Positions 1-23,642 of a stretch of 42,095 nucleotides of DNA are shown piece by piece (position 1 is the stretch's first letter; each line of letters opens with the position of its first letter). A program made the position numbers and the translations under genes. Below the pieces are notes generated by a model. The model worked only from the letters and a program-made list of their open reading frames with translations. It did no database searches and was not told the origin of the DNA. Source of the DNA: a virus; the IMG/VR virus record IMGVR_UViG_3300045988_011437, positions 1-42,095 of that record. One strand, written 5' to 3'.

Positions 1-51
1 ATGCGGCATAGGTGCCCCGTAAGGGGAGACCACAGCGAGTGACGGGGACTT
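1..51. repeat. Terminal 51-bp direct repeat identical to 42045..42095 (circular contig overlap)
   Basis: Exact 51/51 identity between the two window ends, read directly. Unique genome length is 42044 bp. Confidence 0.95.
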
Positions 52-1433: not shown

Positions 1434-2744
1434 GTGCATATCCCCTGGTACAAGGCGCTGATCTTGCGAAAGACGTTCCCGCAGCTGCGGGAGCTGATCG
1501 ACAAGACGCTGAACTACTACCCGCGGGTATACCCCAAGGCCAGGTATAACGGCAGCAGCCACACATGGCGGTTTCCCTCCGGGGCGCAGATCGTGTTCGG
1601 CAGCATGAACCGGCCGCAAGACAAGATACAGTATCAGGGGCAGGCCTATGACTTTATCGCCTTTGACGAGCTGACGCACTTTACGCAGGAGGAATACGAG
1701 TATCTGAAATCCCGAAACCGGCCCAACGGGCCGGGGACGCGGGTGTATATGCGCTCCACGGCCAATCCCGGCGGCGTAGGCCACGGGTGGGTGAAGGAGC
1801 GCTTCATCACGGCGGCGGCGCCGATGCAGACCATCACGGAGGAGGCTGCGTGGTACACGCCGGACGGCAGGAAGCACATAGGGCAGCAGAAGCGGATCTT
1901 CGTGCCGTCCTCGGTATTTGACAACAAGATACTGATGGAAAACGACCCCATGTACGTCCAGCGGCTGGCCAGCATGCCGGAGGCGGAGCGGAACGCCCTG
2001 CTGTACGGCAATTGGGACAGCTTCGAGGGGCAGGTGTTCACGGAGTGGCGCAACGACAGCGAGCACTATATGGACCGGAAGAACACCCACGTGATCGCGC
2101 CGTTCCGGGTGCCGGAGGACTGGGTGATCTGGTGCGGACTGGACTGGGGCTATTCCCGGCCCTTTTCCGTGGGGTGGTACGCCGTGGACCGCAACAGGCG
2201 GATGTACCATATACGGGAGCTATATGGCTGCACGGGAACGCCTAACCGGGGCGTGATGTGGGAGCCAACAAAGGTGGCGCAGGAGATACGTAGGATCGAG
2301 GACGAGGACCCCAACCTGAAGGGGAAACAGATACACCGTGTGGGCGACCCGGCCATCTGGCAAAGCGACGGCACGGAGAGCGTTGGCGCGCTGATGGAGC
2401 GGCAGCGGGTGTACTTCGAGAAGGGTGACCACGCGCGGATCAACGGCAAGATGCAGGTGCACCACCGGCTGGCCTTTGACGAGGATGGAGTGCCCATGCT
2501 GTATGTGTTCAGCACCTGCAAGCATTTTATACGGACGGTGCCGAACCTGGTCTATGACCAGACGGACGTGGAGGACATCGACACCGACGGCGAGGACCAC
2601 ATCTACGACCAGCTGCGGTATGTGTGCATGCGCAACCCCATAGGGCCGCGGGAGGAATACAGGACGGTGGAGCGGCCGTATTCCCCGCTGGAGACAGAGG
2701 ACGAGTACAGGCCCAGCCGGTACGCATTTTATCAAGTGTATTAA
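1434..2744 (+). CDS. terL: Terminase large subunit, main body (frame open from 1362; GGGKS at 1389..1403)
   Basis: 436-aa ORF with ATPase and nuclease regions: ALILRKTFPQL, YDFIAFDELTHF (Walker B-like), STANPGG, and C-terminal DGEDHIYDQLRY. It sits between the HNH gene and portal. There is no start codon in this frame before GTG 1434. Confidence 0.9.
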   Translation: MHIPWYKALILRKTFPQLRELIDKTLNYYPRVYPKARYNGSSHTWRFPSGAQIVFGSMNRPQDKIQYQGQAYDFIAFDELTHFTQEEYEYLKSRNRPNGPGTRVYMRSTANPGGVGHGWVKERFITAAAPMQTITEEAAWYTPDGRKHIGQQKRIFVPSSVFDNKILMENDPMYVQRLASMPEAERNALLYGNWDSFEGQVFTEWRNDSEHYMDRKNTHVIAPFRVPEDWVIWCGLDWGYSRPFSVGWYAVDRNRRMYHIRELYGCTGTPNRGVMWEPTKVAQEIRRIEDEDPNLKGKQIHRVGDPAIWQSDGTESVGALMERQRVYFEKGDHARINGKMQVHHRLAFDEDGVPMLYVFSTCKHFIRTVPNLVYDQTDVEDIDTDGEDHIYDQLRYVCMRNPIGPREEYRTVERPYSPLETEDEYRPSRYAFYQVY

Positions 2745-2754
2745 GGAGGAGCGC

Positions 2755-4689
2755 ATGGAGAGATACGGTATCCCCGGCATCGTACCGGAGGAGCAGGACA
2801 TGGCGCCGGAGATGGCGGCCATGCTGCTGCAGCGGACAGAGCAGACGCCCACCATCACGGACCGGGACGTGGAGCGGGGCATCGACCTGCTGACGAAGTA
2901 CAAGGACGGCAAGAGCAACCTGGAAAACCGCATCGTCAACGACGAGCTGTGGTGGGAGCTGCGGCACTGGGAGGGCATCGGTCAGAGCAAGGCAAAGCGG
3001 GTGGACAAAAGCGGCAAGGAGGTCACGTCTACGCCGCCGGAGCCCAAGCCGTCCTCTGCGTGGCTGTTCAACACCATTCAGAACAAGCACGCCGACGCGA
3101 TGGACAACTACCCGGAGCCGGTGGTATTGCCCCGGGAGCGCAGCGACGAGCAGAGCGCCAAGACGCTGAGCCAGATATTGCCGGTGGTGCAGGAGTACAA
3201 CCACTTCGAGCAGGTGTACTCCGACAACTGGTGGGAGAAGCTGAAGCACGGCACGGCGGTGTACGGCATTTTCTGGGATCCGCAGAAGGACAACGGACTG
3301 GGCGACATCGAGATACGGGACATCGATCTGCTGAAGCTGTTTTGGGAGCCGGGCATCACGGACATCCAGAAGAGCCGGAACCTGTTTATCGTAGACCTGG
3401 TGGACAACGACCTGCTGGACAGCGAGTACCCGCAGCTGAAGGGCAAGCAGAAGGGCAAGGTCGTGGACGTGAAGGAGTACATCTACGACGACAACGTGGA
3501 CACCAGCGACAAGAGCGTGGTGGTGGACTGGTATTACAAGGTCAAGACGCCGGATGGCAGGACGGCGCTGCACTACATCAAATTCGTGGGCTCCACGCTG
3601 CTGTACGCCAGCGAGAACGACCCGGAGTACCGGGAGCGGGGCTTTTATGACCACGGTATGTATCCGGTGGTGCTGGACGTGATGTACCCGGAGAAGGGTA
3701 CCCCCATCGGCTTCGGCTATGTGGCCATCTGCAAGGACCCGCAGCTGTACATCGACAAGCTGAGCGCCAACATTCTGGAGAACGCCATGATGGCCACGAA
3801 AAAGCGTTTCTTTGTCAGCGACACCACGGCCATCAACGAGCAGGAGTTTTTGGACTGGAACCGGCCGCTGGTGCATGTGAACGGGCCGCTGGACGACGGG
3901 CGCATACAGGAGATCGTGACGCAGCCGCTTTCCGACATCTATGTGACTGTGGCGCAGATGAAGATCGAGGAGATGAAGGACACGGCGGCCAACCGTGATG
4001 TGAACTCCGGCGGTACCACCAACGTGACCGCGGCGGCGGCCATTGCAGCTTTGCAGGAGGCGGGCAACAAGGCCAGCCGTGACATGATCGCCGCCAGCTA
4101 TCGGGCGTATACGCAGATCAACACACTGTGCGTGGAGCTGATGCGGCAGTTTTACGACCTGAGCCGCAGCTTCCGCATTACAGGTGAGGGCAGCGAGTAC
4201 CAGTTTATCGACTTCGACAACACCGGCTTGCAGGACCAGGTGACCGGACTGGATACGATGGGCAATCCCATGTTCCGCCGGCCGGTGTTTGATTTGAAGA
4301 TCAAGGCGCAGAAGAAAAACCCCTTTAGCCGCATGGAGCAGAACGAGCGGGCCAAGGAGCTGTACGCAATGGGCTTTTTCGCGCCGGAGAACGCGCAGGC
4401 CAGTTTGATCGCGCTGGACATGATGGACTTTGAGGGCATACAGACGGTGAAGGAGAAGGTCATGCAGGGGCAAACGCTGCTGAACATGGTGATGCAGATG
4501 AGCCAGCAGTTGGCGGCGATCACCGGCGTTCTCATGCCCCAGGAGGAGACGCAGGCAGGCGGCGGCACCAATGCCGCAGAGAGCGGCGGAGGCGGCGGGA
4601 ACGGCCTTGCAAGCGGCATCATGGAGGCGCAGACGCCCATGACCGGGTACGGGCAGGCGCTTGCCAAGCGGAGCACACCCAGCGTATGA
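2755..4689 (+). CDS. Portal protein
   Basis: 644 aa, immediately downstream of terL with a GGAGG RBS. Size and position are typical. The acidic/Gly-rich C-terminal tail is common in portals. Confidence 0.8.
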   Translation: MERYGIPGIVPEEQDMAPEMAAMLLQRTEQTPTITDRDVERGIDLLTKYKDGKSNLENRIVNDELWWELRHWEGIGQSKAKRVDKSGKEVTSTPPEPKPSSAWLFNTIQNKHADAMDNYPEPVVLPRERSDEQSAKTLSQILPVVQEYNHFEQVYSDNWWEKLKHGTAVYGIFWDPQKDNGLGDIEIRDIDLLKLFWEPGITDIQKSRNLFIVDLVDNDLLDSEYPQLKGKQKGKVVDVKEYIYDDNVDTSDKSVVVDWYYKVKTPDGRTALHYIKFVGSTLLYASENDPEYRERGFYDHGMYPVVLDVMYPEKGTPIGFGYVAICKDPQLYIDKLSANILENAMMATKKRFFVSDTTAINEQEFLDWNRPLVHVNGPLDDGRIQEIVTQPLSDIYVTVAQMKIEEMKDTAANRDVNSGGTTNVTAAAAIAALQEAGNKASRDMIAASYRAYTQINTLCVELMRQFYDLSRSFRITGEGSEYQFIDFDNTGLQDQVTGLDTMGNPMFRRPVFDLKIKAQKKNPFSRMEQNERAKELYAMGFFAPENAQASLIALDMMDFEGIQTVKEKVMQGQTLLNMVMQMSQQLAAITGVLMPQEETQAGGGTNAAESGGGGGNGLASGIMEAQTPMTGYGQALAKRSTPSV

Positions 4690-12148: not shown

Positions 12149-12457
12149 ATGGAACCGTGGGTACAGCAGATCGCCGTACCGCTGGCGGTAGCGGTGCTGA
12201 CAAGCAGCGGTTTGTGGGCACTGGTATCGAAGCGGGCGGACAAGAATAACGCAGAGCGGAAGATGCTGGTGGGGCTGGCGCATGACCGCATCATCCATCT
12301 GGGCATGGTGTACGTGACAAGGGGGTACATCACGCAGGACGAGTACGAAAACCTCAATGACTATCTGTACCAGCCGTATGAAAAGATGGGCGGCAACGGC
12401 AGCGCAAAACGGGTCATGGAGGAAGTAAGGAAGCTGCCCATCAAGAGAGAGGCGTAA
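12149..12457 (+). CDS. Single-pass membrane protein, first gene of the lysis cassette (holin-associated?)
   Basis: GAGAGGAG RBS. N-terminal TM segment IAVPLAVAVLTSSGLWALV. Adjacent to the holin and endolysin genes. Confidence 0.55.
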   Translation: MEPWVQQIAVPLAVAVLTSSGLWALVSKRADKNNAERKMLVGLAHDRIIHLGMVYVTRGYITQDEYENLNDYLYQPYEKMGGNGSAKRVMEEVRKLPIKREA

Positions 12458-12475
12458 AGCCGGAAAGGAAGAAAT

Positions 12476-12697
12476 ATGAAGCTGAACAACAAGACCTATG
12501 ACATCATCAAGTGGGTGGTTATGATCGTGCTGCCCGCCCTTAGTGCCCTGTACGTGGGACTGGGCGGCATCTGGGGCTGGCCGTACATCGAGCAGGTGGC
12601 GGGGACTATCTCCTGCATTACCGTGTTCCTTGGCGCGCTGCTGGGCATTTCCAGCGCCAGCTACAAGAAATCTACGCTGGATGAGGAGGCCATGTAA
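12476..12697 (+). CDS. Holin (two TM segments, Dp-1-type pattern)
   Basis: 73 aa. YDIIKWVVMIVLPALSALYVGLGGIWGWP plus a second TM segment ISCITVFLGALLGIS. The next gene starts immediately after the stop codon. Confidence 0.75.
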   Translation: MKLNNKTYDIIKWVVMIVLPALSALYVGLGGIWGWPYIEQVAGTISCITVFLGALLGISSASYKKSTLDEEAM

Positions 12698-13381
12698 ATG
12701 GCCGCCCCGAAAGTCTACCTGTCCCCGGCTATGCACATGGCAAACCCCTGTGTATATCCGCGCCCGGATGGGAAACAGTGCTATGAGGCACTGGAGAACA
12801 ACGAGTACATCGACATTCTGGAGCCGATCCTGAACCGCTGCGGCATTGCCACTAAGCGCGGGTACCGGCGCACCCCCATGAACGGCGACAACGGCGATGC
12901 CATCATGAAGCAGAACGTGAGGGAAAGCAACGCATGGGGCGCGGACGTGCATTACGTCAGCCACACCAACGCCATCAGCAACGGCGCGGAGCAGACACGG
13001 GTGAGCGGGTGCAACCCCATGTACTACACTTATTCCAGCAAGGGGAAGAAGTTGGGCGAGATCATGGTGAAATACCGCAAGCAGGTGTACCCCGGCAAGG
13101 TGACGCTGGTGCCAAACGCCAAGTGGTACGAGCTGCGGGTGCCGAACGCGGTGAGCTTTTACGAGGAACACGCTTTCCATGACAATCCCAACGACATCGG
13201 CTGGTGGCACGAGCACATGACAGAGGTGGCGGAGAGCGCCGCCAAGGGCCTGTGCGAGTGGTTCGGCATCCCGTATGTGGAGCCGGAGACACCGGAACAG
13301 CCGACCGTGACCGAAACGTACACCGTGAAGGTGACGCGGAGCGCGGACGGGAAAAGCGGCACGTGGGAGATCGTGAAGTGA
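12698..13381 (+). CDS. Endolysin, N-acetylmuramoyl-L-alanine amidase (Amidase_3-like)
   Basis: Motifs GADVHYVSHTNA and SFYEEHAFHDN are typical of zinc amidase_3 catalytic domains. It follows the holin. Confidence 0.85.
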   Translation: MAAPKVYLSPAMHMANPCVYPRPDGKQCYEALENNEYIDILEPILNRCGIATKRGYRRTPMNGDNGDAIMKQNVRESNAWGADVHYVSHTNAISNGAEQTRVSGCNPMYYTYSSKGKKLGEIMVKYRKQVYPGKVTLVPNAKWYELRVPNAVSFYEEHAFHDNPNDIGWWHEHMTEVAESAAKGLCEWFGIPYVEPETPEQPTVTETYTVKVTRSADGKSGTWEIVK

Positions 13382-13390
13382 GGTGAAGAC

Positions 13391-13741
13391 ATGACGGTTA
13401 CAGATACCATTTCGCAGGCGGACGAGCTGCGGCTGAACACCATAAGCGACGAGCAGAAAGCGGCGTGGGTGATGGGGCTGGACCAGCAGATTGGGGAGAG
13501 GATCGATATGGACTCCTACGTACACAGTTGGCCGGCGGGCGACGGGGAGCTGCTGCTCCCCGCGCCCTACGACCGGGTGTATGTGCTGTATCTGTGCAGC
13601 CAGATCGACTACTACAACAACGAAACGGCGCTGTATGGCAACGACAAGGCGGTGTATGACGAGGCGATGAGTGAGGCGATGGCGTGGTGGCGCCGGCAGC
13701 ACTGCCCGGACAACACCGGGAATGTGCAGGTGATGGGATGA
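13391..13741 (+). CDS. Head-tail connector/adaptor-like protein (putative)
   Basis: 116 aa. The pattern YVLYLCSQIDYYNNETALYGNDKAVYDEAMSEAMAWWRR resembles gp6-like connector proteins. Weak, by recollection only. Confidence 0.45.
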   Translation: MTVTDTISQADELRLNTISDEQKAAWVMGLDQQIGERIDMDSYVHSWPAGDGELLLPAPYDRVYVLYLCSQIDYYNNETALYGNDKAVYDEAMSEAMAWWRRQHCPDNTGNVQVMG

Positions 13742-15273
13742 GACTGGCAAGCCTGCCCTATTCCCTGAACCCCAACAAGGTGGAGATGGTGCAGATGCGA
13801 GGCATCAACTGGTCGGATGCCATACAGAACGGCGATTTGCGGGACAGCCTGAATTTGTCGGCCAGACGGTGGCCGTACATCACCACGCGGAAAGGAAGGT
13901 TGAAGCAGACCGGGTACAAGAATGTGACGGCGCTGACATCGTGGGACAAGCTGGTGGCGGTGCAGGGGACTTCCCTGTTGTACGACGGGCAGACGGTGGG
14001 CACGGTGACGGCGGGAAAGAAGCAGTTTGCCGTGGTGAATACCAAGATGGTGATATGGCCGGACAAGGTGTATCTGGACATCAAGGACCAGACCGTAAAG
14101 CCGCTGGCGGCGGAGATCACCGGCAGCAAGGCCACGTTTGCCACTAACAAAATAACCGTGAACGGCTGGGCGGACCTGACCACGAAGTTCAAAGCGGGCG
14201 ACGGCGTGACACTTTCCGGCTGCACATCCAAGACGGAGAACAACAAGGATTTTGTCATTAAGGCGGTCACCTCCAACACGATCACGGTGGCGGACAACAC
14301 ATTTACGGCGGTGAACGAGGCCAGCACCAGCATTAAGATCGAGCGAAAGATACCGGACCTGGACTACATATGCGAGAGCGAAAACCGGCTGTGGGGCTGC
14401 GACAACGACACGCAGACCATATACGCCAGCGCGCTGGGCGACCCCACGAATTTTTACGTGTATGAGGGACTATCCACAGACGCCTATACGCTGGCAGTGG
14501 GCACGGAGGGGAAATTCACCGGCTGCTGCAAGCTGAGCTCTTCGGTGCTGTTCTGGAAGGAGACAAAGCTGCACAAGATGCTGGGCAGCTATCCGGCGGA
14601 GTACGCCATGTACACCTACGAAATGGAGGGCTTGCAGGATGGATGTCAGAAAAGCCAGCAGGTGATCAACGACACGCTGTTCTATAAAGGCCCTCACGGG
14701 GTATACGCCTATTCCGGCGGCACGCCGGTGCTGATCAGCGACAACTTCGGCGAGAAGGAGTTTACCGATGCGGTAGCCGGCAACGACGGAGACAGCTACT
14801 ACCTGAGCGTGAAGGACGGCGCGGAGCACCGGTTAATGGTGTACGAGACCAAGACCGGGATATGGGTGCTGGAGGACGGCACGGAGGCGGTGGACTTTGC
14901 GCGGCTGGGCAAGAAGCTGTACATGCTGGCGGGCGGCGACGTGTACCTGCTGGATGGCGAGGACACGCCGCAGGCGCAGGAGTGGATGGCGCAGTTCGCC
15001 CCCATGTATGAGACCATCGACGGCAAGAAAGCGTATTCCAAGATACTGATGCGGCTGGAGCTGCCGAAGGGCAGCTACATGACGGCACAGATGCGCTGCG
15101 ACGGAAAGCCGTGGCAGACGTGCGGCAAGGTGGTGGGCAAGGAGCACAACGTGACCAGCCTGCGGCTTGCGGCCAACCGGTGCGACAAATTTGAGCTCAG
15201 GCTGGAGGGCAAGGGCCCGTGCACCATACTGGGCATATCGAGAGCGTTTATGGTGGGGAGTGATGTGAAATGA
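13738..15273 (+). CDS. Large virion protein (tail/nozzle-like, beta-rich)
   Basis: ATG 13738 overlaps the previous stop (ATGA). 511 aa. Function is inferred only from position. Confidence 0.55.
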   Translation: MRLASLPYSLNPNKVEMVQMRGINWSDAIQNGDLRDSLNLSARRWPYITTRKGRLKQTGYKNVTALTSWDKLVAVQGTSLLYDGQTVGTVTAGKKQFAVVNTKMVIWPDKVYLDIKDQTVKPLAAEITGSKATFATNKITVNGWADLTTKFKAGDGVTLSGCTSKTENNKDFVIKAVTSNTITVADNTFTAVNEASTSIKIERKIPDLDYICESENRLWGCDNDTQTIYASALGDPTNFYVYEGLSTDAYTLAVGTEGKFTGCCKLSSSVLFWKETKLHKMLGSYPAEYAMYTYEMEGLQDGCQKSQQVINDTLFYKGPHGVYAYSGGTPVLISDNFGEKEFTDAVAGNDGDSYYLSVKDGAEHRLMVYETKTGIWVLEDGTEAVDFARLGKKLYMLAGGDVYLLDGEDTPQAQEWMAQFAPMYETIDGKKAYSKILMRLELPKGSYMTAQMRCDGKPWQTCGKVVGKEHNVTSLRLAANRCDKFELRLEGKGPCTILGISRAFMVGSDVK

Positions 15274-15596
15274 TCGTTTTCCCGGAGAGCATAAACGAGC
15301 TGCCGAGGGAGAACCCGTCAGAGGCGCTGGACATAACGGAAAACTACATTAAGTACATGTGCCAGCGCATTGACTGGGCAATGGGCAACGTGACAAAGAA
15401 CGTCAGCAAGGCGGGCGTGTCCAACGCGGAGATGTACATTCTGCTGACGGCGCTGCAGAATACGGTATCCGCCCTGCAGAGCACGGTGAACAGCCAGGGG
15501 GCCAGCATATCGGCGCTGACGCAGAGCGTGACGATACTGGGCAACGACTACACGGCGCTGGAGCAGAGAGTGGCGGCGCTGGAAAACAAGACATAA
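15270..15596 (+). CDS. Hypothetical virion protein with C-terminal coiled coil
   Basis: ATGA overlap with the previous gene. Heptad-like LQNTVSALQSTVNSQGASISALTQSVTILGNDYTALEQRVAALE. Confidence 0.5.
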   Translation: MIVFPESINELPRENPSEALDITENYIKYMCQRIDWAMGNVTKNVSKAGVSNAEMYILLTALQNTVSALQSTVNSQGASISALTQSVTILGNDYTALEQRVAALENKT

Positions 15597-15607
15597 GGAG
15601 GATGCCT

Positions 15608-16522
15608 ATGGCTATACGGAAAAACAAAAAAGCGACGACCGGCAGTGTTATGGGCGCAGTAAGCGGACTATTCGGCGACCCGAATAACCGGAGCAACATG
15701 GCGGACGCCGTCGCCATGAAAAAGGCGGCAATTAAAAACAACGCGGTCAATGGCGCCCTGGCGGGCGCAATGGGCGGCGCTGTGGGCGGCGCACTGAACT
15801 ACGGGAACAGCGGCGGAAATTCCGGCGGTGGCTACACGCGGGTGGAAATGCCGGTAGATGTGGGCGCACTTCCCACCTTCAACAGCTCGTATCTGGATCA
15901 GCTGAATGCTTTGGCGCGGCAGCTGACCAGCATGAACTACGAGGACTGGACAAAGGGCAGCCAGTACCAGTCGCTGGCGGATCGGTATGGCAACAACGGA
16001 CGGATGAGCATGCAGGACGTATTGGGGCAGGTGGCCGCCCGCACCGGCGGCTTGGCCTCCAGCTATGCCACCACGGCGGCGCAGCAGCAGTACAACCAGT
16101 ACATGGCGCAGCTGGAGGAAGTGGCGCGGCAGATGTACTCACAGGAGCGCGGCGACATTATGGACACCGCCAATTTGTACCGCAATCTGGCAAACGACGA
16201 GTACGGCCGCTATCGGGACAGCCTGGCCGATTACAATGATCGTCTGGCGGCAGCACAGAGCGCGGCACGGAGCGCATACATCGGCAGCGGATACGCCGGC
16301 ACGACAAGCATTGACCGGCTGAAAAGCCGCAGCGGCAACGGTGGCTCCGGCGGCAGCGACAACGCAAGATACAGCAGCAGCACGGCACTGAACCTGGCCA
16401 CCAGCAACGCAAGGACCACCAGCGGGCAGATGATGGCGCTGGAGGCTATGTACGAAAACGGGAACATCACAAAGAAGCAGTACAGCGATCTGGTATACGC
16501 CGTGAAGAACCCGGGGAAATAA
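15608..16522 (+). CDS. Hypothetical Gly/Ala/Ser-rich protein (internal virion protein?)
   Basis: AAGGAGG at 15595..15601. ATG 15608 has better spacing than ATG 15602. Confidence 0.5.
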   Translation: MAIRKNKKATTGSVMGAVSGLFGDPNNRSNMADAVAMKKAAIKNNAVNGALAGAMGGAVGGALNYGNSGGNSGGGYTRVEMPVDVGALPTFNSSYLDQLNALARQLTSMNYEDWTKGSQYQSLADRYGNNGRMSMQDVLGQVAARTGGLASSYATTAAQQQYNQYMAQLEEVARQMYSQERGDIMDTANLYRNLANDEYGRYRDSLADYNDRLAAAQSAARSAYIGSGYAGTTSIDRLKSRSGNGGSGGSDNARYSSSTALNLATSNARTTSGQMMALEAMYENGNITKKQYSDLVYAVKNPGK

Positions 16523-16532
16523 GGAGGGCGCG

Positions 16533-19500
16533 ATGGGCTGGAAGCAGACATTTCAGAAGAAAATGAAAGCTGCGGGGATGGAAAACGACATCCCCGCAGC
16601 AAGCCGGACAAGCCGCAATGCAGACAGCGGCGGGTGGCAGGATAAGTTCCGCAGCAAAATGGAAGCTGCCGGCATGGGCGGCGATATTATCCGCACCGGC
16701 GGCAGAACGGCAGCGGATGTGGCGCCCAGCACCTATAAGCCGGACACGTCTATGCTGGTTACGCCGGGCGTGCCTGCGGGAAACGCAACAAGTGCGGCGG
16801 GGAAATATAACGTGGGCCAGGGCTTGGCAAAAGCCGGACAAATGGGCCTGACACAGATCGCCAAAGTGGGCAGCTCTGCCGGCGCATGGATAGAGAACCT
16901 GCTGGGTGATTTTGCCCGGGAGGGCTCCAACGGCTACTGGGACCCGGACACCAGCAACTGGCTTTTCAACCGCTGGAACCGGGCTATTGACGCGGAGGCG
17001 CAGGGGGTGCAGCAGCGGTACGCAGAAAACACGGCACGCGGCGGGAAAGCGGCGCAGGTTTTTGAAGACCTGGGTGCGGCGACGGTGGCGGCGGTGCCGC
17101 AAGCCATTGCGGCGCTGTTGACCGGCGGCGCCAGCACGGCGGCACAGGCAGGTGCACTGGCGGAAAACGCGGCGGCTTCCTCCGGGTTGGTCAACACCAT
17201 TTCCCGCAGTATGCGGGCAATGGTGAAAGATCCGAACTTCCAGCTCTCCTTTGCACAGGTATTTGGCCCCGGGTATGAGCAGGCAAAGGCGGACGGCGCG
17301 GACGATTTCCGCGCTTCCGTGTACGCCATCGGCAACGGACTGATGAACGCCGCCGTGGAAGTGGGCGGCGGTATCCAGACGCTGCCACGGGAATTGCAGA
17401 ACGGCGGCAGCGCATGGAAAGCATGGGTGGACACCATGCTGGACGAGGGCAAGGAGGAAGTGGTGCAGGGCGTGATCGAACGCGCCACGCAGAACGCCGT
17501 CTATGGACGGGACAACCCCCTTGTCGGTATCGGCAACGGCGCCATTTTTGACCCGGCGGCAGCGGCGGAGGAATTTGCCGGTGGCGCTGTGGTTGGCGGT
17601 ATCCTGGGCGGCGGGCAGGTGGGCGTGAACACCCTTGCCAACCGTTCGGCATACAACGCGGCCAGAGCGCAGTATGACCGGGACGTGCGGCAGAACACCG
17701 CGCCGGAGATGGACGGCAGGACGGCGGAAGCCGTGGAGGCGGTGACCCGGGGCGAGACGATCACCGGCAACCAGGCGGCAGCCATTGCACGGGACCCGGT
17801 GGCCGTGGAGACACTGGAGGCCAGCACCGGGGTAAAGCTGGACACGGAAAAGCCCATCAGCCAGCTCAAACGTGAAATTATCGCCCTTGCAAGCCGCGAG
17901 ACAGCGCAGGAGCAGACACAGCGCGCCCCGGCTATCCCCCAGACGCAGAAACGCGCACAGAAAGCCGTGGGCGGCTTTATGGAGGCGGGTCAGAGAGCGT
18001 ATCAGCAGGTGCGGGAGACAAGCGGCAGCGGCGCGGAGGTGTACGCAGGCTTTTCCGCCATGTACAACGCGGGATTGAACGGCGTTGAGGCGGAAAAGGC
18101 CAAGGGCAAGTACGCGGCGATGCTGACGCCGGAGCAGCAGTACACGGCGTACAACGCAGGGCTGGAGGACGCCAGGGCGCAGGTGGCACGGGAGAATGCG
18201 GACGTAGCATACGTGACCACCACGGCAGGAGCAGGTTTGGCGGACAATGCCTACAGCCGGTACATCATCGCCAAAGACAAGGGCGCGGCCTCGACGCTGA
18301 ACACTATCGGAAAGAAGCTGGGCGTGCGTATCGAGTTCGTGGACAGCATTATGGATGGGCAGGCCAACGGCCAGTACATCAGGGAGAAAAACCTGATCCA
18401 GATCGCGGCGGACAGCACGAACCCCATCTATGAGGTGGCGGGGCACGAGGTCACCCACCGGATGCAGGACCTATCCCCCGACGAGTACCGGGCGTTCCGG
18501 AAGGCGGCGATAGAGTACCGCATGCGGGAGAACGGCGCGGACACGGAAACGGAGGTCGTGCAGCGGTACATGGAGGCGGCAGAGAGAGCCGGCATAACGC
18601 TGACGCAGGACGAGGTGATGGACGAGATCGCCGCAGACTTTGCGGGGCGGATGATCGAGGACACGGATCTGTTCGCGCGGTTTGCCAAGGACAACCGCAC
18701 GGCGGCGCAGAAGCTGTTGGACGGGCTGAAGGAATTTATTGCCAAAGTCAAGGCTATGTTCACCGGCAAGGCAAGAGACAACGCGGCGATGGATGCCTAC
18801 GGCAAGACCTTCGGAGAGCTGGAGGACATTGCGCAGAAGTGGCAGGCGGCTTTTGACGCGGCGGAGCGGCAGGCGGAGAAAACAAAAACCGCCGCCGGTG
18901 AGGGAAGCGGTGCAAAGTATCAGATCAAGCAGTTCCCCAATGGCATGAAATACGTTCAGGCGGACAGACAAGTGTTATTTGGCAACGACCCCAAGGCGTG
19001 GAGTGAACAGCTGGAAAACTATATCAACGGCAAAATCCGCAATCACGAGGATGTTCGCCTGATTGCCGAGGACGGCGATGTTCTGCTCCTGACAAGTAAA
19101 TCTGCCGGGAAGCTGAGTAGCATTTACGACAACAATGGTCGAACGATGGATGAAAAAGCATTTGAACGTAAAGCAAATGCGGCTGCTCACATCGACGAAC
19201 TCATTAAAGTTTCTGAGCGCGGAGGAAAGACTGTCCTTGACTTTGGCGGGCGTCACGGTGACATGGCAAAAGACGGCTGGAACTATCGAACGGCGTATTT
19301 CATGGATTTTGATGGAAAGTATTATCGAACGCGCATTTCCGTTGCGCTGGGTAAGGATGGGAGCATTGTCTACAATATCGGGGAAATGCAAGAAAGAAGC
19401 ACTCCCCAAATTAACGGCTCTTCCGGAAACTCCGGCGCTCAGCGGGGGAATGCTTCTGCTAATAGTATACCCACCGAGGGCGGAAATGTCAAGCCGAAGT

Positions 19501-22500
19501 TTTCGCTGAAGGCTTACTCGGAGGCGGAGAAAAAAGATCATGTAAAATCCGCAAAGGAATTTTTCGGCAAGACGTACAGCTGGAACGAGACCGGGTACAT
19601 CACCACGGACGGCACAAAGCTGGACTTTTCCGGCAGGCATGATGGCGGTCCCGGCGGCTACCGCACTGTGGACCACCGTGACATCCGCGATGCGCTGGGG
19701 CTTGACTACGGCGGCGAAGATTACAGCGGCGCAATGGTGCAGTTTATGAGCGAGGGCAATATCCGCATCAGCCCGGAAAGCGGCGGCATCAATCTGTCGG
19801 TCATGCCCACAAAGGCGCAGCTGGACACGCTGGCTGACTTTATCAGTAAAAACCGCGGCGAGGTGATACTGGATCTGGACGACACCAACGGAAACACCGT
19901 GTCCAGCACGGAATATCCGAAGGGAACGCACAGCAGCAAGGTCATCAACGACATAAGGGCGTACTTTGAGAACGGAACGGTGCCGCAGGCATCTGAGCTG
20001 AGCCAGTTCCGGTATCAGCTGCGGAGTACGGCGGACATTGAACAGGAGGTGCGGGACCTGAAACGGGAGCGCACGGTACTGTCCAGCCGCAACCGCGCAT
20101 TGGAACAGCGGGTGCAGGAGCTGAAGGGCGAAATGCGTATCAGTAAGGAGCCGTCCGTAGTGCTGCGGGACGTGAAAAAACTGGGGCGCGAGACCATACG
20201 CAAGTACGGCAGCGACGTGAAATACGGAGACATTCAGGCCGACATGGAGGCGCTGGGCAAGGCTGTGATGAAGAAAGACGTGAGCATGGCCGACCTGATG
20301 CCCTACGCCAGAAACGCGGCGACGGCCATCGTGGACAACACGACGGAGCTGACGGAGCACGGCGCGGAGCTGCTGGAGATCAAAGACTACCTGAAGCGGC
20401 AGAAGATCCTTTTCAACGGGGAGATGGACCACTACAACGAGTTCCGCAAGCGGTACATGGGAACGCTGAAGCTGAACAAGTCGGAGGGCTTGCCGGTGGA
20501 CACCATGTACGAGGAAATGACGGAGATGTTCGGCGAGGGCTATTTCCCCAGCGACGTGTATACCGAGGCGGACAAGCTGCAGCAGATCGCGGATGTGCTG
20601 GACAGCATGGACAGCATTTATGAAAACCCCTTTGACAGCTACCGTGACGCAGCCATTCAGGAGATCGCCAACGACATCATTGACGGCATGATCTCTGACC
20701 AGGTGCGGCAGAAGAAGACCTTTGCCGACCGGCGGGAGCTGGAGAAGCAGGAGGCCGTGGGACGGGTGCGTGAAATGCTGACAAAGGAGCGGGAAAAGCG
20801 CCGGGACATGGTGAAGCGGATGCGCCGGGAGTACAGCGAGAAGACCCAGAAGGGCCGGGAGAAGCGGTACGCCGCGGAGATGCGTGCAAAGATCGCCAGA
20901 CACACGGGGCCTTTGTCCGAAAAGCTGCTGCGACCCACGGACAAAAAGCACATTCCGGAGGAGCTGCGCGTGGTGGTGGCCGATCTGCTGCGGAACATCA
21001 ACCTGGAGAGCGCATACAGCTACGACGAGAACGGACGGCTGCGGAAAAACGCCGGCGGCGACCCGACCCGACGGACGCAGGAGGCCGTAAAGCTGAAAAA
21101 GGCATACGAGGACATCATTGCCCGTGAGGCGAACATGGTGGTGGACCCCGATTTGCTTGACAGCGGCGGTCTGCTGGACAGCCTGGCGGCGCTGGGCGGA
21201 AAGCGTATCGCCGACATGAACGTGACGGAGCTGGAGACCGTATGGAATGCGGTGCGGGCCATCGAGGCCACGCTGACCAGCTACGACCGGACGCTGGCGA
21301 ACCAGAAGTACGCACGGACCAGCGAGTGGGCGGACAGCCTTATGATGGGCAGTATGAGCCGGAAGCGGCGGAACCGGAAGATCTCACTGGATATGGCGGA
21401 CCCGTATACGTTCTTCTCCGCCTACGGCGACGGCGGCATGCAGGTATACCGGACGCTGCGGAACGCGCAGGACCGGGAGCATGTGATGCTGACGGAGCTG
21501 CGGGACGCGGCTAAAAAGTTCCTGGATGCGGACGTGTACAAAAACCGCTTTGAACGGCACACGTTCACCACAAGCCGGGGCGTGGAGCTGACGCTGACCA
21601 ACGAGCAGATCATGAACCTGTACAACCTGGCAAAGCGCGGTGAGCAGGCCATGAACCACCTGATGGTGGGCGGCATCGTGCAGCCGGAGATCGAGCGGGA
21701 CGGCAAGCTGAAAGCCATCCCCCGCGGGACGGAGAACATCCTGCTGACGCTGGAGGACGTCAGGGCCATCACCTCCGTGCTGACACCGGAGCAGATCAAG
21801 GTGGCGGACGGATTGCAGAAGCTGGCCAGCACGAAGCTGGCGGAGTGGGGCAACGAGGCCAGCATGGCGGTGTACGGCTACCGCAAGTTCATGGAAACGC
21901 ATTACTGGCCCATCAAGACGGCGAAGGAGGCCACGGCATCCAGCGTGGAGAAGGGACCGGACATCGCCAGAGAGATCAAGAATATGGGCAGCGCAAAGGC
22001 CCTGACGCCAAACGCCAGCAACGCGCTGGACATCGGCGGCGTGTATGACGTGTTCGCGCAGAACGCCAGCGACATGATCAAGTACGCCACGCTGCTGGCC
22101 CCGATGGAGGACATCAACCGGCTGTACAACTACCGGTACCGGGACAGCATGGGCAACCTGACCGGGAAGAACGTGCGGCAGGTGCTGTCCGGCGTGTACG
22201 GCGACGCGGCGCAAAGCTACTGGCGAAACCTGATGCGGGATGTGCAGAACGGCATGGTGAAGAACGCCAGCGCCACCACAAGGGCCGTGGAGCGCATCGT
22301 GGGCAACACAAAAGGCGCCGCGGTGGGGGCGAACCTGCGCGTGGTCATCCAGCAGCCCACGGCGTACTTCCGGGCGGCGGTGGTGCTGGACCCGGAGAAC
22401 ATGGCGAAGGGCCTGGGCAACGGCGTGACCAAAGGCAACGGATGGGACAAGGCACGAAAGTGGGCGCCCATTGCGGGCATCAAGGACACGTCCGGCTTTG

Positions 22501-23642
22501 ACCAGGGCAGCCGGTACACCATCGCACGGGAGGTATACGGCACGGACGGCGGCTTTATGGAGTGGCTGAGCGACAAGAGTATGTCACTGGCCGGGAAAGC
22601 CGATGCGATGACGTGGGGCAAGATCTGGAACGCCTGCGAGTGGCAGGTGGCGGCGGACACGAACCTGGAGGTTGGCAGCGATGCCTACTATCAGCAGGTG
22701 GCGGAGGTGTTTACGGACGTGATCGACCAGACGCAGGTGGTGGACGGCATCATGCAGCGGACGCAGATCATGCGGGACAGCGACGCGCTGACGCGGCAGG
22801 CCACGTCTTTTATGGGTGAGCCGCTGAAAAGCCTGAATATCCTGATGCGGTCCTACGATGCATGGGTGTATGAAACGAACCCGCAGAAGCGCAGCAAGGC
22901 GCTGAAGCAGCTAAAGCGGGCCGTGGGCGCTTTGCTGGTGACGGACGTGGTGAACGCATTGGCACAGTCCATCGTGGACGGCCTGCGGGACGACGACAAG
23001 GATAAGAAGTACTGGGAGCGCGTTCTGGAAGCCTTTACCGGCATTACAGGGGAGGAAAAGAACTTTAGCGAGGCTGTCAAGAACATCACGCTGCAGGGCA
23101 ATGTGAAGGGCAACATCACGCTGGTAGGCCGTATCCCCTACGCCAAAGACATTATCTCCATTCTGCAGGGCTACACCGTAGACCGCATGGATGCCGGAGC
23201 GGTGGACGACATCGTAAGGGCCACCAAGTCCATGATCTCCAGCGCCAACGGACAGGGCAAAAAAACGGCGGCGTACAACGTCAAGCAGTTCCTGACCGTG
23301 GTCAGCAAAATCTTTGGCGTCAGCGTGGCGAACCTGGGACGGGATACCTGGGCCATTGCCAGAAGTATTGCCAGCGAGACCGGAAATGTGCGGCTGATGT
23401 TCGAGATGGAAAAGGCCATCTACCGCATGGACAAGAGCGCCGGGAACCGGAAAACGTGGTGCGAGCTGCTGTACCGGGCGCAGAAAGAAAGGGACACCGA
23501 AACGGCGCGTCTGATCTACAGGGAGATGCTGGCGCACGGCTATGAGGAGGCGGACGTGCGGCAGGGCGTGGAGGCCATTATGAAGCAGGAGCAGGGCGTA
23601 AACTCTGTGAAAGAACTGAGAAACCGGTGGATGGCACCGTAA
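16533..23642 (+). CDS. Giant 2369-aa virion-associated multidomain protein with HExxH zincin motif (polyvalent / ejected-protein candidate)
   Basis: Uninterrupted 7.1-kb ORF with a GGAGGG RBS. HEVTH lies at 18444..18458 in the context PIYEVAGHEVTHRMQD. A lower-GC segment at about 19000..19560 encodes a compact basic domain. Long coiled-coil stretches are present. No tape-measure gene occurs elsewhere in the genome. Confidence 0.8.
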   Translation: MGWKQTFQKKMKAAGMENDIPAASRTSRNADSGGWQDKFRSKMEAAGMGGDIIRTGGRTAADVAPSTYKPDTSMLVTPGVPAGNATSAAGKYNVGQGLAKAGQMGLTQIAKVGSSAGAWIENLLGDFAREGSNGYWDPDTSNWLFNRWNRAIDAEAQGVQQRYAENTARGGKAAQVFEDLGAATVAAVPQAIAALLTGGASTAAQAGALAENAAASSGLVNTISRSMRAMVKDPNFQLSFAQVFGPGYEQAKADGADDFRASVYAIGNGLMNAAVEVGGGIQTLPRELQNGGSAWKAWVDTMLDEGKEEVVQGVIERATQNAVYGRDNPLVGIGNGAIFDPAAAAEEFAGGAVVGGILGGGQVGVNTLANRSAYNAARAQYDRDVRQNTAPEMDGRTAEAVEAVTRGETITGNQAAAIARDPVAVETLEASTGVKLDTEKPISQLKREIIALASRETAQEQTQRAPAIPQTQKRAQKAVGGFMEAGQRAYQQVRETSGSGAEVYAGFSAMYNAGLNGVEAEKAKGKYAAMLTPEQQYTAYNAGLEDARAQVARENADVAYVTTTAGAGLADNAYSRYIIAKDKGAASTLNTIGKKLGVRIEFVDSIMDGQANGQYIREKNLIQIAADSTNPIYEVAGHEVTHRMQDLSPDEYRAFRKAAIEYRMRENGADTETEVVQRYMEAAERAGITLTQDEVMDEIAADFAGRMIEDTDLFARFAKDNRTAAQKLLDGLKEFIAKVKAMFTGKARDNAAMDAYGKTFGELEDIAQKWQAAFDAAERQAEKTKTAAGEGSGAKYQIKQFPNGMKYVQADRQVLFGNDPKAWSEQLENYINGKIRNHEDVRLIAEDGDVLLLTSKSAGKLSSIYDNNGRTMDEKAFERKANAAAHIDELIKVSERGGKTVLDFGGRHGDMAKDGWNYRTAYFMDFDGKYYRTRISVALGKDGSIVYNIGEMQERSTPQINGSSGNSGAQRGNASANSIPTEGGNVKPKFSLKAYSEAEKKDHVKSAKEFFGKTYSWNETGYITTDGTKLDFSGRHDGGPGGYRTVDHRDIRDALGLDYGGEDYSGAMVQFMSEGNIRISPESGGINLSVMPTKAQLDTLADFISKNRGEVILDLDDTNGNTVSSTEYPKGTHSSKVINDIRAYFENGTVPQASELSQFRYQLRSTADIEQEVRDLKRERTVLSSRNRALEQRVQELKGEMRISKEPSVVLRDVKKLGRETIRKYGSDVKYGDIQADMEALGKAVMKKDVSMADLMPYARNAATAIVDNTTELTEHGAELLEIKDYLKRQKILFNGEMDHYNEFRKRYMGTLKLNKSEGLPVDTMYEEMTEMFGEGYFPSDVYTEADKLQQIADVLDSMDSIYENPFDSYRDAAIQEIANDIIDGMISDQVRQKKTFADRRELEKQEAVGRVREMLTKEREKRRDMVKRMRREYSEKTQKGREKRYAAEMRAKIARHTGPLSEKLLRPTDKKHIPEELRVVVADLLRNINLESAYSYDENGRLRKNAGGDPTRRTQEAVKLKKAYEDIIAREANMVVDPDLLDSGGLLDSLAALGGKRIADMNVTELETVWNAVRAIEATLTSYDRTLANQKYARTSEWADSLMMGSMSRKRRNRKISLDMADPYTFFSAYGDGGMQVYRTLRNAQDREHVMLTELRDAAKKFLDADVYKNRFERHTFTTSRGVELTLTNEQIMNLYNLAKRGEQAMNHLMVGGIVQPEIERDGKLKAIPRGTENILLTLEDVRAITSVLTPEQIKVADGLQKLASTKLAEWGNEASMAVYGYRKFMETHYWPIKTAKEATASSVEKGPDIAREIKNMGSAKALTPNASNALDIGGVYDVFAQNASDMIKYATLLAPMEDINRLYNYRYRDSMGNLTGKNVRQVLSGVYGDAAQSYWRNLMRDVQNGMVKNASATTRAVERIVGNTKGAAVGANLRVVIQQPTAYFRAAVVLDPENMAKGLGNGVTKGNGWDKARKWAPIAGIKDTSGFDQGSRYTIAREVYGTDGGFMEWLSDKSMSLAGKADAMTWGKIWNACEWQVAADTNLEVGSDAYYQQVAEVFTDVIDQTQVVDGIMQRTQIMRDSDALTRQATSFMGEPLKSLNILMRSYDAWVYETNPQKRSKALKQLKRAVGALLVTDVVNALAQSIVDGLRDDDKDKKYWERVLEAFTGITGEEKNFSEAVKNITLQGNVKGNITLVGRIPYAKDIISILQGYTVDRMDAGAVDDIVRATKSMISSANGQGKKTAAYNVKQFLTVVSKIFGVSVANLGRDTWAIARSIASETGNVRLMFEMEKAIYRMDKSAGNRKTWCELLYRAQKERDTETARLIYREMLAHGYEEADVRQGVEAIMKQEQGVNSVKELRNRWMAP

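Follow-up and report, generated by a model that had tools for sequence, protein, structure and literature searches.

A giant phage protein whose cassettes are exchanged at a junction pentapeptide

The virus genome held in IMG/VR record IMGVR_UViG_3300045988_011437 (positions 1 to 42,095, the whole stretch analysed here, hereafter the window) raises the question of what a phage may gain from devoting a large share of its DNA to a single protein. The open reading frame (ORF) at 16533..23642 on the + strand (ATG at 16533, stop codon at 23640..23642) encodes a product of 2369 aa and 261 kDa. Because the record is complete (42,095 bases, direct terminal repeats, CheckV 100%), this gene represents 16.9% of the virus genome, in agreement with the one sixth given in a preliminary description that had been made from the letters of the window. 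We consider it very likely that the product is a phage-type polyvalent protein (Iyer et al., 2017, PMC5512222). This kind of protein is already known (PMC5512222), and the giant protein is a well-resolved example of it rather than a new kind; what the locus adds is a sharply defined junction code, cassette turnover at the population level and two uncharacterised but widespread modules, the C-terminal frame and a cassette named M2.

Cassettes exchanged at a junction pentapeptide

Alignment with near-identical proteins divides the giant protein into a constant N-terminal part (aa 1-794), a constant C-terminal part (from aa 1160) and cassettes between them, with the following features:

16533..23642, + strand: gene of the giant, very probably polyvalent, protein (ORF; match to PHROG 22978, E=1.6e-291)
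17973..18914, + strand: putative gluzincin-type metallopeptidase region, aa 481-794 (invariant ligands, topology of the AlphaFold2 model)
18915..18929, + strand: junction motif 1, KYQIK, aa 795-799 (pattern scan)
18915..19496, + strand: cassette M1, aa 795-988, LPD3-like, with a Ser/Gly/Asn-rich linker at its end (low guanine-plus-cytosine (GC) content, sub-threshold LPD3 match)
19497..19511, + strand: junction motif 2, KFSLK, aa 989-993 (pattern scan, identity break)
19497..20009, + strand: cassette M2, aa 989-1159, unnamed alpha/beta domain (AlphaFold2 model, alignment)
20010..20024, + strand: junction motif 3, RYQLR, aa 1160-1164 (pattern scan, identity resumption)
20010..23639, + strand: conserved C-terminal module, aa 1160-2369, a predicted all-helical 'chassis' (clusters, AlphaFold2 model, BFVD matches)

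Siblings that are 97-99% identical at both ends range in length from 2198 to 2734 aa. Their M2 slot may be empty or may contain an ART-PolyVal domain, an ADP-ribosyltransferase (ART) together with M2, or a block of 525 aa that includes PBECR5, and the named domains score above the Pfam cut-offs (ART-PolyVal, E from 2e-10 to 9.5e-24; PBECR5, E=4.9e-56); some siblings carry an extra 233-aa module ahead of M1, and MuF_C, LPD3-like and second HExxH domains are among the other cassettes of the family. By comparing 143 proteins whose C-terminal modules are at least 95% identical, we observed 18 patterns of cassette architecture, or about a dozen after merging of small length variants. DNA identity between the window and its siblings ends at 19508-19513 (at 19513 against sibling L003) and resumes at 20010-20015. 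At the level of sequence, phages that are nearly identical (95-99% in the flanks) differ by gain, loss and replacement of cassettes, and the borders of these changes coincide exactly with the junction pentapeptide. We also looked for silent cassettes kept in reserve at other places of the genome, an arrangement known from polymorphic toxin loci, and found none.

This pentapeptide, [KR][FY][QS][ILV][KR], is present at every module border of the giant protein and at borders only, with three copies observed versus 0.045 expected; 2000 shuffles never gave as many as three. Across 142 representatives of the family, chosen so that no pair exceeds 50% identity, the motif occurs 1.16 times per protein versus 0.13 expected (approximately nine-fold), with the consensus ..NPDIRFSLK and a median spacing of 219 aa. 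Considering that 157 distinct junctions are encoded by 100 different 15-mers and that all synonymous Ser, Leu and Arg codons are used, the conserved thing is the peptide and not a DNA recombination site. At least seven kinds of module that are unrelated to one another follow the motif, among them the coiled coil with which the C-terminal part starts, so that the motif does not belong to any one fold; it comes after linkers that AlphaFold leaves disordered. No description of this junction peptide was found in the phage literature, and the text of Iyer et al. (PMC5512222) mentions no linker, junction signal or processing site.

The two cassettes present in the window differ from each other and from their surroundings. 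M1 has a GC content of 0.495 and a GC content at third codon positions (GC3) of 0.54, versus a GC3 of 0.75-0.90 in the rest of the gene. A low-GC insert encoding a compact basic domain had been recognised in the preliminary description at approximately 19000..19560; the insert is real and its product basic (isoelectric point of 8.7), and its limits have to be moved to 18915..19496. Resemblance to toxin or nuclease modules had also been suggested. M1 matches LPD3 (PF18798) with 20.5 bits (E=5.9e-4, model positions 4-114 of 114), short of the cut-off of 27, and three of 15 M1 relatives match LPD3 at E<=0.01 (best 5e-5), so that M1 can be described as LPD3-like only. No toxin or nuclease fold or family was recovered for M1 in Pfam, PDB profile and Foldseek searches, its AlphaFold2 confidence is low, and the suggested toxin or nuclease nature is not supported because LPD3 has no assigned function. 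M2 has a confident AlphaFold2 model of alpha/beta type (predicted local distance difference test (pLDDT) of 85-98) and the invariant pattern LDFS..R..DHR..F..G.IR, and no match to it was detected in Pfam or, by sequence profile and Foldseek, in PDB. M2 is 77% identical in phages in which the protease is 35% and the C-terminal module about 42% identical. Taken together with the identity breaks and the deviant GC content of M1, this contrast shows lateral traffic of cassettes.

An M2-like domain with 35% identity was also found in the giant protein of the marine Rhodobacteraceae phage LS06-2018-MD07 (OP947163.1). The gene order of this phage is alike, comprising an internal virion protein, a hypothetical protein and a giant 'methyltransferase' that crosses the origin of the record.

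The metallopeptidase and the role of the pentapeptide

The zincin-type site noted beforehand, HEVTH at 18444..18458, is the sole HExxH of the giant protein, and a putative third zinc ligand, Glu698, is encoded at 18624-18626. H638, E639, H642 and E698 are invariant in 32 diverse relatives (22-98% identity), and the AlphaFold2 model (pLDDT of approximately 80-89) places a helix, a three-stranded sheet, the HExxH helix and the Glu helix in this order. The protease domain was detected in 115 of the 142 representatives. HExxH is present in 97 of these, and all 17 aligned members of the other 18 have HExxxH, a variant of the polyvalent-protein zincin described by Iyer et al. (PMC5512222). With 17 of the 18 aligned and all of them HExxxH, we rejected the view that the non-HExxH domains are inactive. 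Residue and topology evidence suggests that the protease is a gluzincin of the polyvalent-protein type. No Pfam peptidase family, MPTase-PolyVal included, is matched above its gathering cut-off by the giant protein; the 32 relatives gave only weak Pfam matches (DUF6782, 2.4e-4; eCIS_core, 1.5e-3; Peptidase_M64, 2.7e-3), and neither a profile search of the protease alignment against PDB nor a Foldseek search of a three-domain model (aa 481-1159) against PDB gave a significant match (best E=0.23 in the latter). Weak and non-significant Foldseek matches of this model to CdiA-CT and Pur-alpha were not used.

The family member L080:5557-13641 contains, alongside the constant protease, a second and unrelated HExxH cassette (YATHEITHVMKQ; module c14, aa 835-1088) between junction motifs, with a weak eCIS_core match (E=7.8e-4).

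In polyvalent proteins the zincin metallopeptidase acts as a hub, and self-processing by the protease has been proposed (PMC5512222). In this family, 157 of the 158 motif copies lie downstream of the protease domain, and 80 of 115 protease-bearing proteins contain the motif versus six of 27 that lack the protease (odds ratio 8, p=1.3e-5, uncorrected for relatedness). We tentatively propose that the giant protein is cleaved at the junction motif, without regarding this step as the expected outcome.

It is also possible, if rather doubtful, that the pentapeptide is a docking peptide or merely a tolerated in-frame recombination joint, and that host proteins or the cell wall are the substrate of the zincin. 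The family consensus RFSLK is letter for letter a variant of the AlkB homologue 2 PCNA-interacting motif (APIM) that binds the bacterial beta-clamp, which appears to be a coincidence, albeit a noteworthy one. Gln at position 3 lies outside the APIM consensus, and two of the three motifs in the giant protein (KYQIK and RYQLR) have Gln at this position, which speaks against docking. As a synthetic peptide, RFSLK binds the beta-clamp with a dissociation constant below 50 uM and, when over-expressed or made cell-penetrating, stops the growth of E. coli (PMC7261172), which would favour docking. Many family members also do without the motif, Iyer et al. allow that the protease itself may be the effector (PMC5512222), and a wall-degrading metallopeptidase has been proposed by the authors of a study on phage phi24B (bioRxiv 10.64898/2026.04.10.717836). 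On the other side, the location of the motif downstream of the protease, after disordered linkers and ahead of unrelated modules, is what a processing signal would be expected to have.

A reading that joins both functions was considered possible to a similarly limited degree. The pentapeptide would be the address code of a 'polyprotein' of a double-stranded DNA phage: the gluzincin would cut each copy after ejection, automatically releasing any cassette that lies between two copies, and therefore cassettes would swap exactly at the pentapeptide. Once freed, the R/K-F-S-L-K ends might in addition bind the sliding clamp of the host in the manner of the synthetic APIM peptide of identical sequence. 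The C-terminal module would then represent a fold not described before, by which phages of monoderm Clostridia store the protein in the capsid and let it exit.

The constant parts, the neighbouring genes and delivery

The C-terminal module is most conserved at approximately aa 1560-2320. It is matched by 4,280 clusters (50% identity) at E<=1e-3, always at the C-terminal end of proteins that are 1,500-4,300 aa long. PHROG 22978, a family of unknown function, aligns to aa 1162-2353 with its profile positions 2041-3237 of 3513. Long coiled coils and a large C-terminal region had been described from the letters, and the AlphaFold2 model agrees with this in being all-helical (pLDDT 74.6, predicted template modelling score 0.59), with helices of 31, 60 and 44 residues. 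The predicted single helix of 60 residues, encoded at window positions 20751-20930, is very rich in Lys, Arg and Glu (..KEREKRRDMVKRMRREYSEKTQKGREKRYAAEMRAKIARH..). The module is absent from Pfam and has no PDB match by sequence profile or by fold (best Foldseek E=0.59). In BFVD, the model matches the C-terminal pieces of many viral polyvalent proteins, with names such as PolyVal ART, MuF-C or LPD and with identities down to approximately 10%. One weak BFVD match (E=1.5e-8, template modelling score 0.23) is a protein annotated as structural from Tenacibaculum phage Gundel_1, a phage of podoviral morphology by transmission electron microscopy.

Further features lie in the constant N-terminal part and upstream of the gene:

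16539..16676, + strand: duplicated peptide W(K/Q)..F..KM.AAGM, aa 3-16 and 35-48 (both copies kept in a divergent lineage)
17070..17636, + strand: N-terminal core, aa 180-368 (alignment, hydropathy peak)
13684..16522, + strand: group of three genes upstream (products of 529, 108 and 306 aa) that accompanies the giant gene (synteny)

The peptide that had been reported as duplicated is found as WKQTFQKKMKAAGM (aa 3-16) and WQDKFRSKMEAAGM (aa 35-48), and both copies are kept in a lineage (L058, L065) whose C-terminal module is only about 54-57% identical; it may possibly serve as a packaging or targeting signal. The N-terminal core consists of an acidic block (EVGGGIQ..LP, DEGKEEV.QG) flanked by Gly/Ala-rich hydrophobic segments at aa 180-205 and 345-368. 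Its alignment has 17 invariant columns and a nearly invariant FAGGA.VGG.L, and profile searches of Pfam and PDB gave no match to it. The Gly/Ala-rich segments may be a candidate membrane-inserting element. PDB profile searches with the alignments of the C-terminal module, protease, M1, M2 and N-terminal core reached a best E of 0.007, none of the matches being biologically sensible, and sequence searches of Pfam, NCBIfam and PDB with the whole giant protein gave no usable match.

The gene is the last of the structural block and lies in the late operon. Terminase, a P22-type portal, a scaffold-like gene, a capsid gene (phrog_1357) and fibre-like genes lie upstream on the same strand, as do a holin-like gene, an endolysin, a 529-aa phrog_511 homologue and two small genes. 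A strong ribosome-binding site (AGGAGG at 16522..16527, seven bases upstream of the ATG) overlaps the stop codon of the preceding gene, by which translation of the giant gene is coupled to that of the upstream genes. The 529-aa product matches phrog_511 'internal virion protein' (E=2.3e-56). Among the 133 relatives with sufficient flanking sequence, a phrog_511 homologue is located upstream on the same strand in 120 and the gene of the 306-aa protein is kept upstream in 105. The giant protein contains two Cys in 2369 residues (0.08%) versus 0.79% in 11 other late proteins of the same phage.

The holin-like gene (phrog_4105) and endolysin (phrog_435), at window positions 12149-13381, are situated well inside the structural block, with the fibre-like genes on one side and the module formed by phrog_511 and the giant protein on the other, and not at the end of the late operon. 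In two IMG/VR contigs (L051:6836-14086 and L052:6836-14086), terL is followed by one ORF in which the portal (aa 30-420) is joined in frame to the giant protein from approximately aa 757, and the capsid and tail genes are missing. We did not take this fusion as a Rosetta-stone sign of portal association, as it probably reflects a deletion of about 14 kb that removed the capsid and tail genes.

The absence of tape-measure, tube and sheath genes had been part of the preliminary description, with clear tape-measure homology of the whole protein named as a finding that would overturn its reading. No tape-measure, tube or sheath family was matched among approximately 20 late ORFs scanned, some small ORFs being outside the scan, and the giant protein and its neighbours match no tape-measure family of Pfam, PHROG or NCBIfam. 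A short-tailed virion is a reasonable inference because none of these families was matched. By searching 50,697 phage records with the whole giant protein (tblastn), the portal and phrog_511, we detected no cultured relative; the matches were unannotated human faecal fragments, one Bacillus phage portal (24% identity) and, via cassette M2 only, one Rhodobacteraceae phage. Prophage copies of the family are located in Oscillospiraceae (Oscillibacter, Flavonifractor and Evtepia), other Clostridia and a few Lachnospiraceae, suggesting a monoderm host of the Oscillospiraceae. Carriers of a relative include Oscillospiraceae bacterium CM710M_45 (L156), Flavonifractor sp. An100 (L172) and Butyrivibrio proteoclasticus P6B7 (L202).

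Considering the position of the gene, its translational coupling, the very low Cys content and the analogues phi24B gp47, N4 virion RNA polymerase (vRNAP) and P1 DdrB, the last of which is discussed alongside N4 vRNAP by Iyer et al. (PMC5512222), we infer packaging and ejection, and the giant protein is probably delivered by the virion. It would be produced late and enclosed in the capsid; packaging and passage would be the task of the constant parts, and the protein would leave through the portal and short tail together with the DNA. The Gly/Ala-rich segments could then help it to cross or sit in the membrane, and the zincin would cleave the protein at the junction peptides, with the bond between K/R and F/Y as the most plausible site. 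Such a cut would free the cassettes (here M1 and M2; ART or BECR RNases in siblings), which would target the defences or the machinery of the host ahead of all phage gene expression, and diversifying selection from hosts and rival elements may sustain the turnover of cassettes. On balance we lean towards this account as a whole, that is, a virion-carried polyvalent protein with a constant frame, exchangeable cassettes and cleavage at the junctions.

Several observations weigh against it. The lineage is uncultured throughout and is known here from sequences alone. The motif is missing in 56 of the 142 representatives and in 35 of the 115 protease-bearing proteins, and the association between protease and motif could come from shared ancestry. 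The protease has neither an above-threshold Pfam family nor a significant Foldseek match to a zincin, and no MuF, portal or N4-type anchor domain was found in the giant protein. Comparisons by hhalign with the N4 vRNAP protease (probability of 0.7%) and with the C-terminal 1,052 aa of N4 vRNAP that form its encapsidation region (probability of 0.2%) were negative.

Two other explanations concern the place of action. It is improbable that the giant protein is a structural, tail- or tape-measure-like part that does not enter the cytoplasm (such as a needle, a core or a device for penetrating the wall), with enzymes acting on the envelope. Its place at the end of the structural block behind fibre-like genes would suit such a part, as would long, helical and Gly/Ala-rich segments of the sort seen in many tape-measure proteins, and some BFVD relatives are automatically labelled Sipho- or Myoviridae. 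However, besides the lack of tape-measure, tube or sheath matches for the giant protein and its neighbours, the phage has a P22-type portal, the giant protein yielded no peptidoglycan hydrolase module, and the cassettes of siblings belong to types with a cytoplasmic site of action (NAD-dependent ART and BECR RNases). Even less likely is an unpackaged, late cytoplasmic multi-enzyme for superinfection exclusion or conditioning of progeny DNA: polyvalent proteins may also act against rival elements (PMC5512222), but the tight linkage and translational coupling to virion genes across more than 100 diverged relatives, the presence of an analogous giant protein in phi24B virions, and the scarcity of Cys and conservation of a non-enzymatic frame of 1,200 aa, both hard to explain for a soluble enzyme, argue against it.

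The family is very large, with more than 4,000 clusters (50% identity), and confined to gut Clostridia, its prophages being mainly in Oscillospiraceae. Near-identical phages that differ solely in their cassettes represent a natural experiment, and the junction peptide gives a concrete rule for where cassettes start. Polyvalent proteins are regarded as the earliest of the phage weapons to arrive in the host, and to our knowledge almost none has been studied outside E. coli phages. If the junction peptide were a protease site, it would explain how disparate effectors are released, and it would also be a simple finder of cassette borders and of new effector domains, M2 being one case, across the thousands of giant proteins that lack annotation. 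Even if it is not a cleavage site, the giant protein remains a clear though ordinary representative of its class.

Comparison with known systems

The giant protein resembles the polyvalent proteins of Iyer et al. (PMC5512222) in combining several conflict-related modules (zincin, LPD3-like M1 and M2) in one chain, in its late-gene location after terminase, P22-type portal, capsid, fibre-like genes and phrog_511, and in the mosaic of ART-PolyVal, PBECR, MuF_C and LPD3 cassettes. It differs in that its C-terminal module, N-terminal core and M2 match no Pfam family from that work and in that its cassette borders bear a defined pentapeptide. In the preliminary description its low-GC insert had been compared to modules of MuF-type polyvalent proteins. 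The polyvalent part of this comparison is upheld by the ART-PolyVal and PBECR5 domains of siblings, whereas 'MuF-type' is wrong because there is no MuF N-terminal domain; Phage_Mu_F was not matched by the whole giant protein or by pieces of it. The toxin fusions of MuF proteins (SPP1 gp7 and Mu gp30) are similar in having exchangeable cassettes, and MuF_C-type cassettes occur in relatives of the giant protein. However, the polarity is opposite: MuF fusions consist of a head-internal carrier with a C-terminal toxin cargo, whereas the cargo is internal and the frame C-terminal in the giant protein.

Analogous giant proteins occur in phi24B and N4. In phi24B, a temperate short-tailed phage, gp47 (2,811 aa) contains LPD5, LPD1, LPD38 and a MuF-C metallopeptidase; it is abundant in virions by proteomics and invisible in the reconstruction, and was proposed to be an encapsidated ejection protein (bioRxiv 10.64898/2026.04.10.717836). 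Both are giant polyvalent proteins, but gp47 has another domain set and phi24B has a Gram-negative host; tblastn of the giant protein against the 50,697 phage records retrieved no Stx phage, and so no similarity to gp47. N4 gp50, the vRNAP of 3,500 aa, is encapsidated and ejected, has a zincin-like HExxH region and needs its C-terminal part for encapsidation (PMC5512222). The giant protein shares the size and the HExxH region but has no RNA polymerase module, and we rejected a reading as a virion RNA polymerase since no polymerase family was matched.

The ejection proteins gp14-gp15-gp16 of T7 and gp7-gp20-gp16 of P22 are stored in the capsid, mostly helical and ejected to form a conduit. The genes at this locus likewise form a run of co-linear late genes with the largest one last. 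Unlike those proteins, which it matches neither in sequence nor in fold, the giant protein would enter a monoderm host that, as far as the prophage copies suggest, has no periplasm to span.

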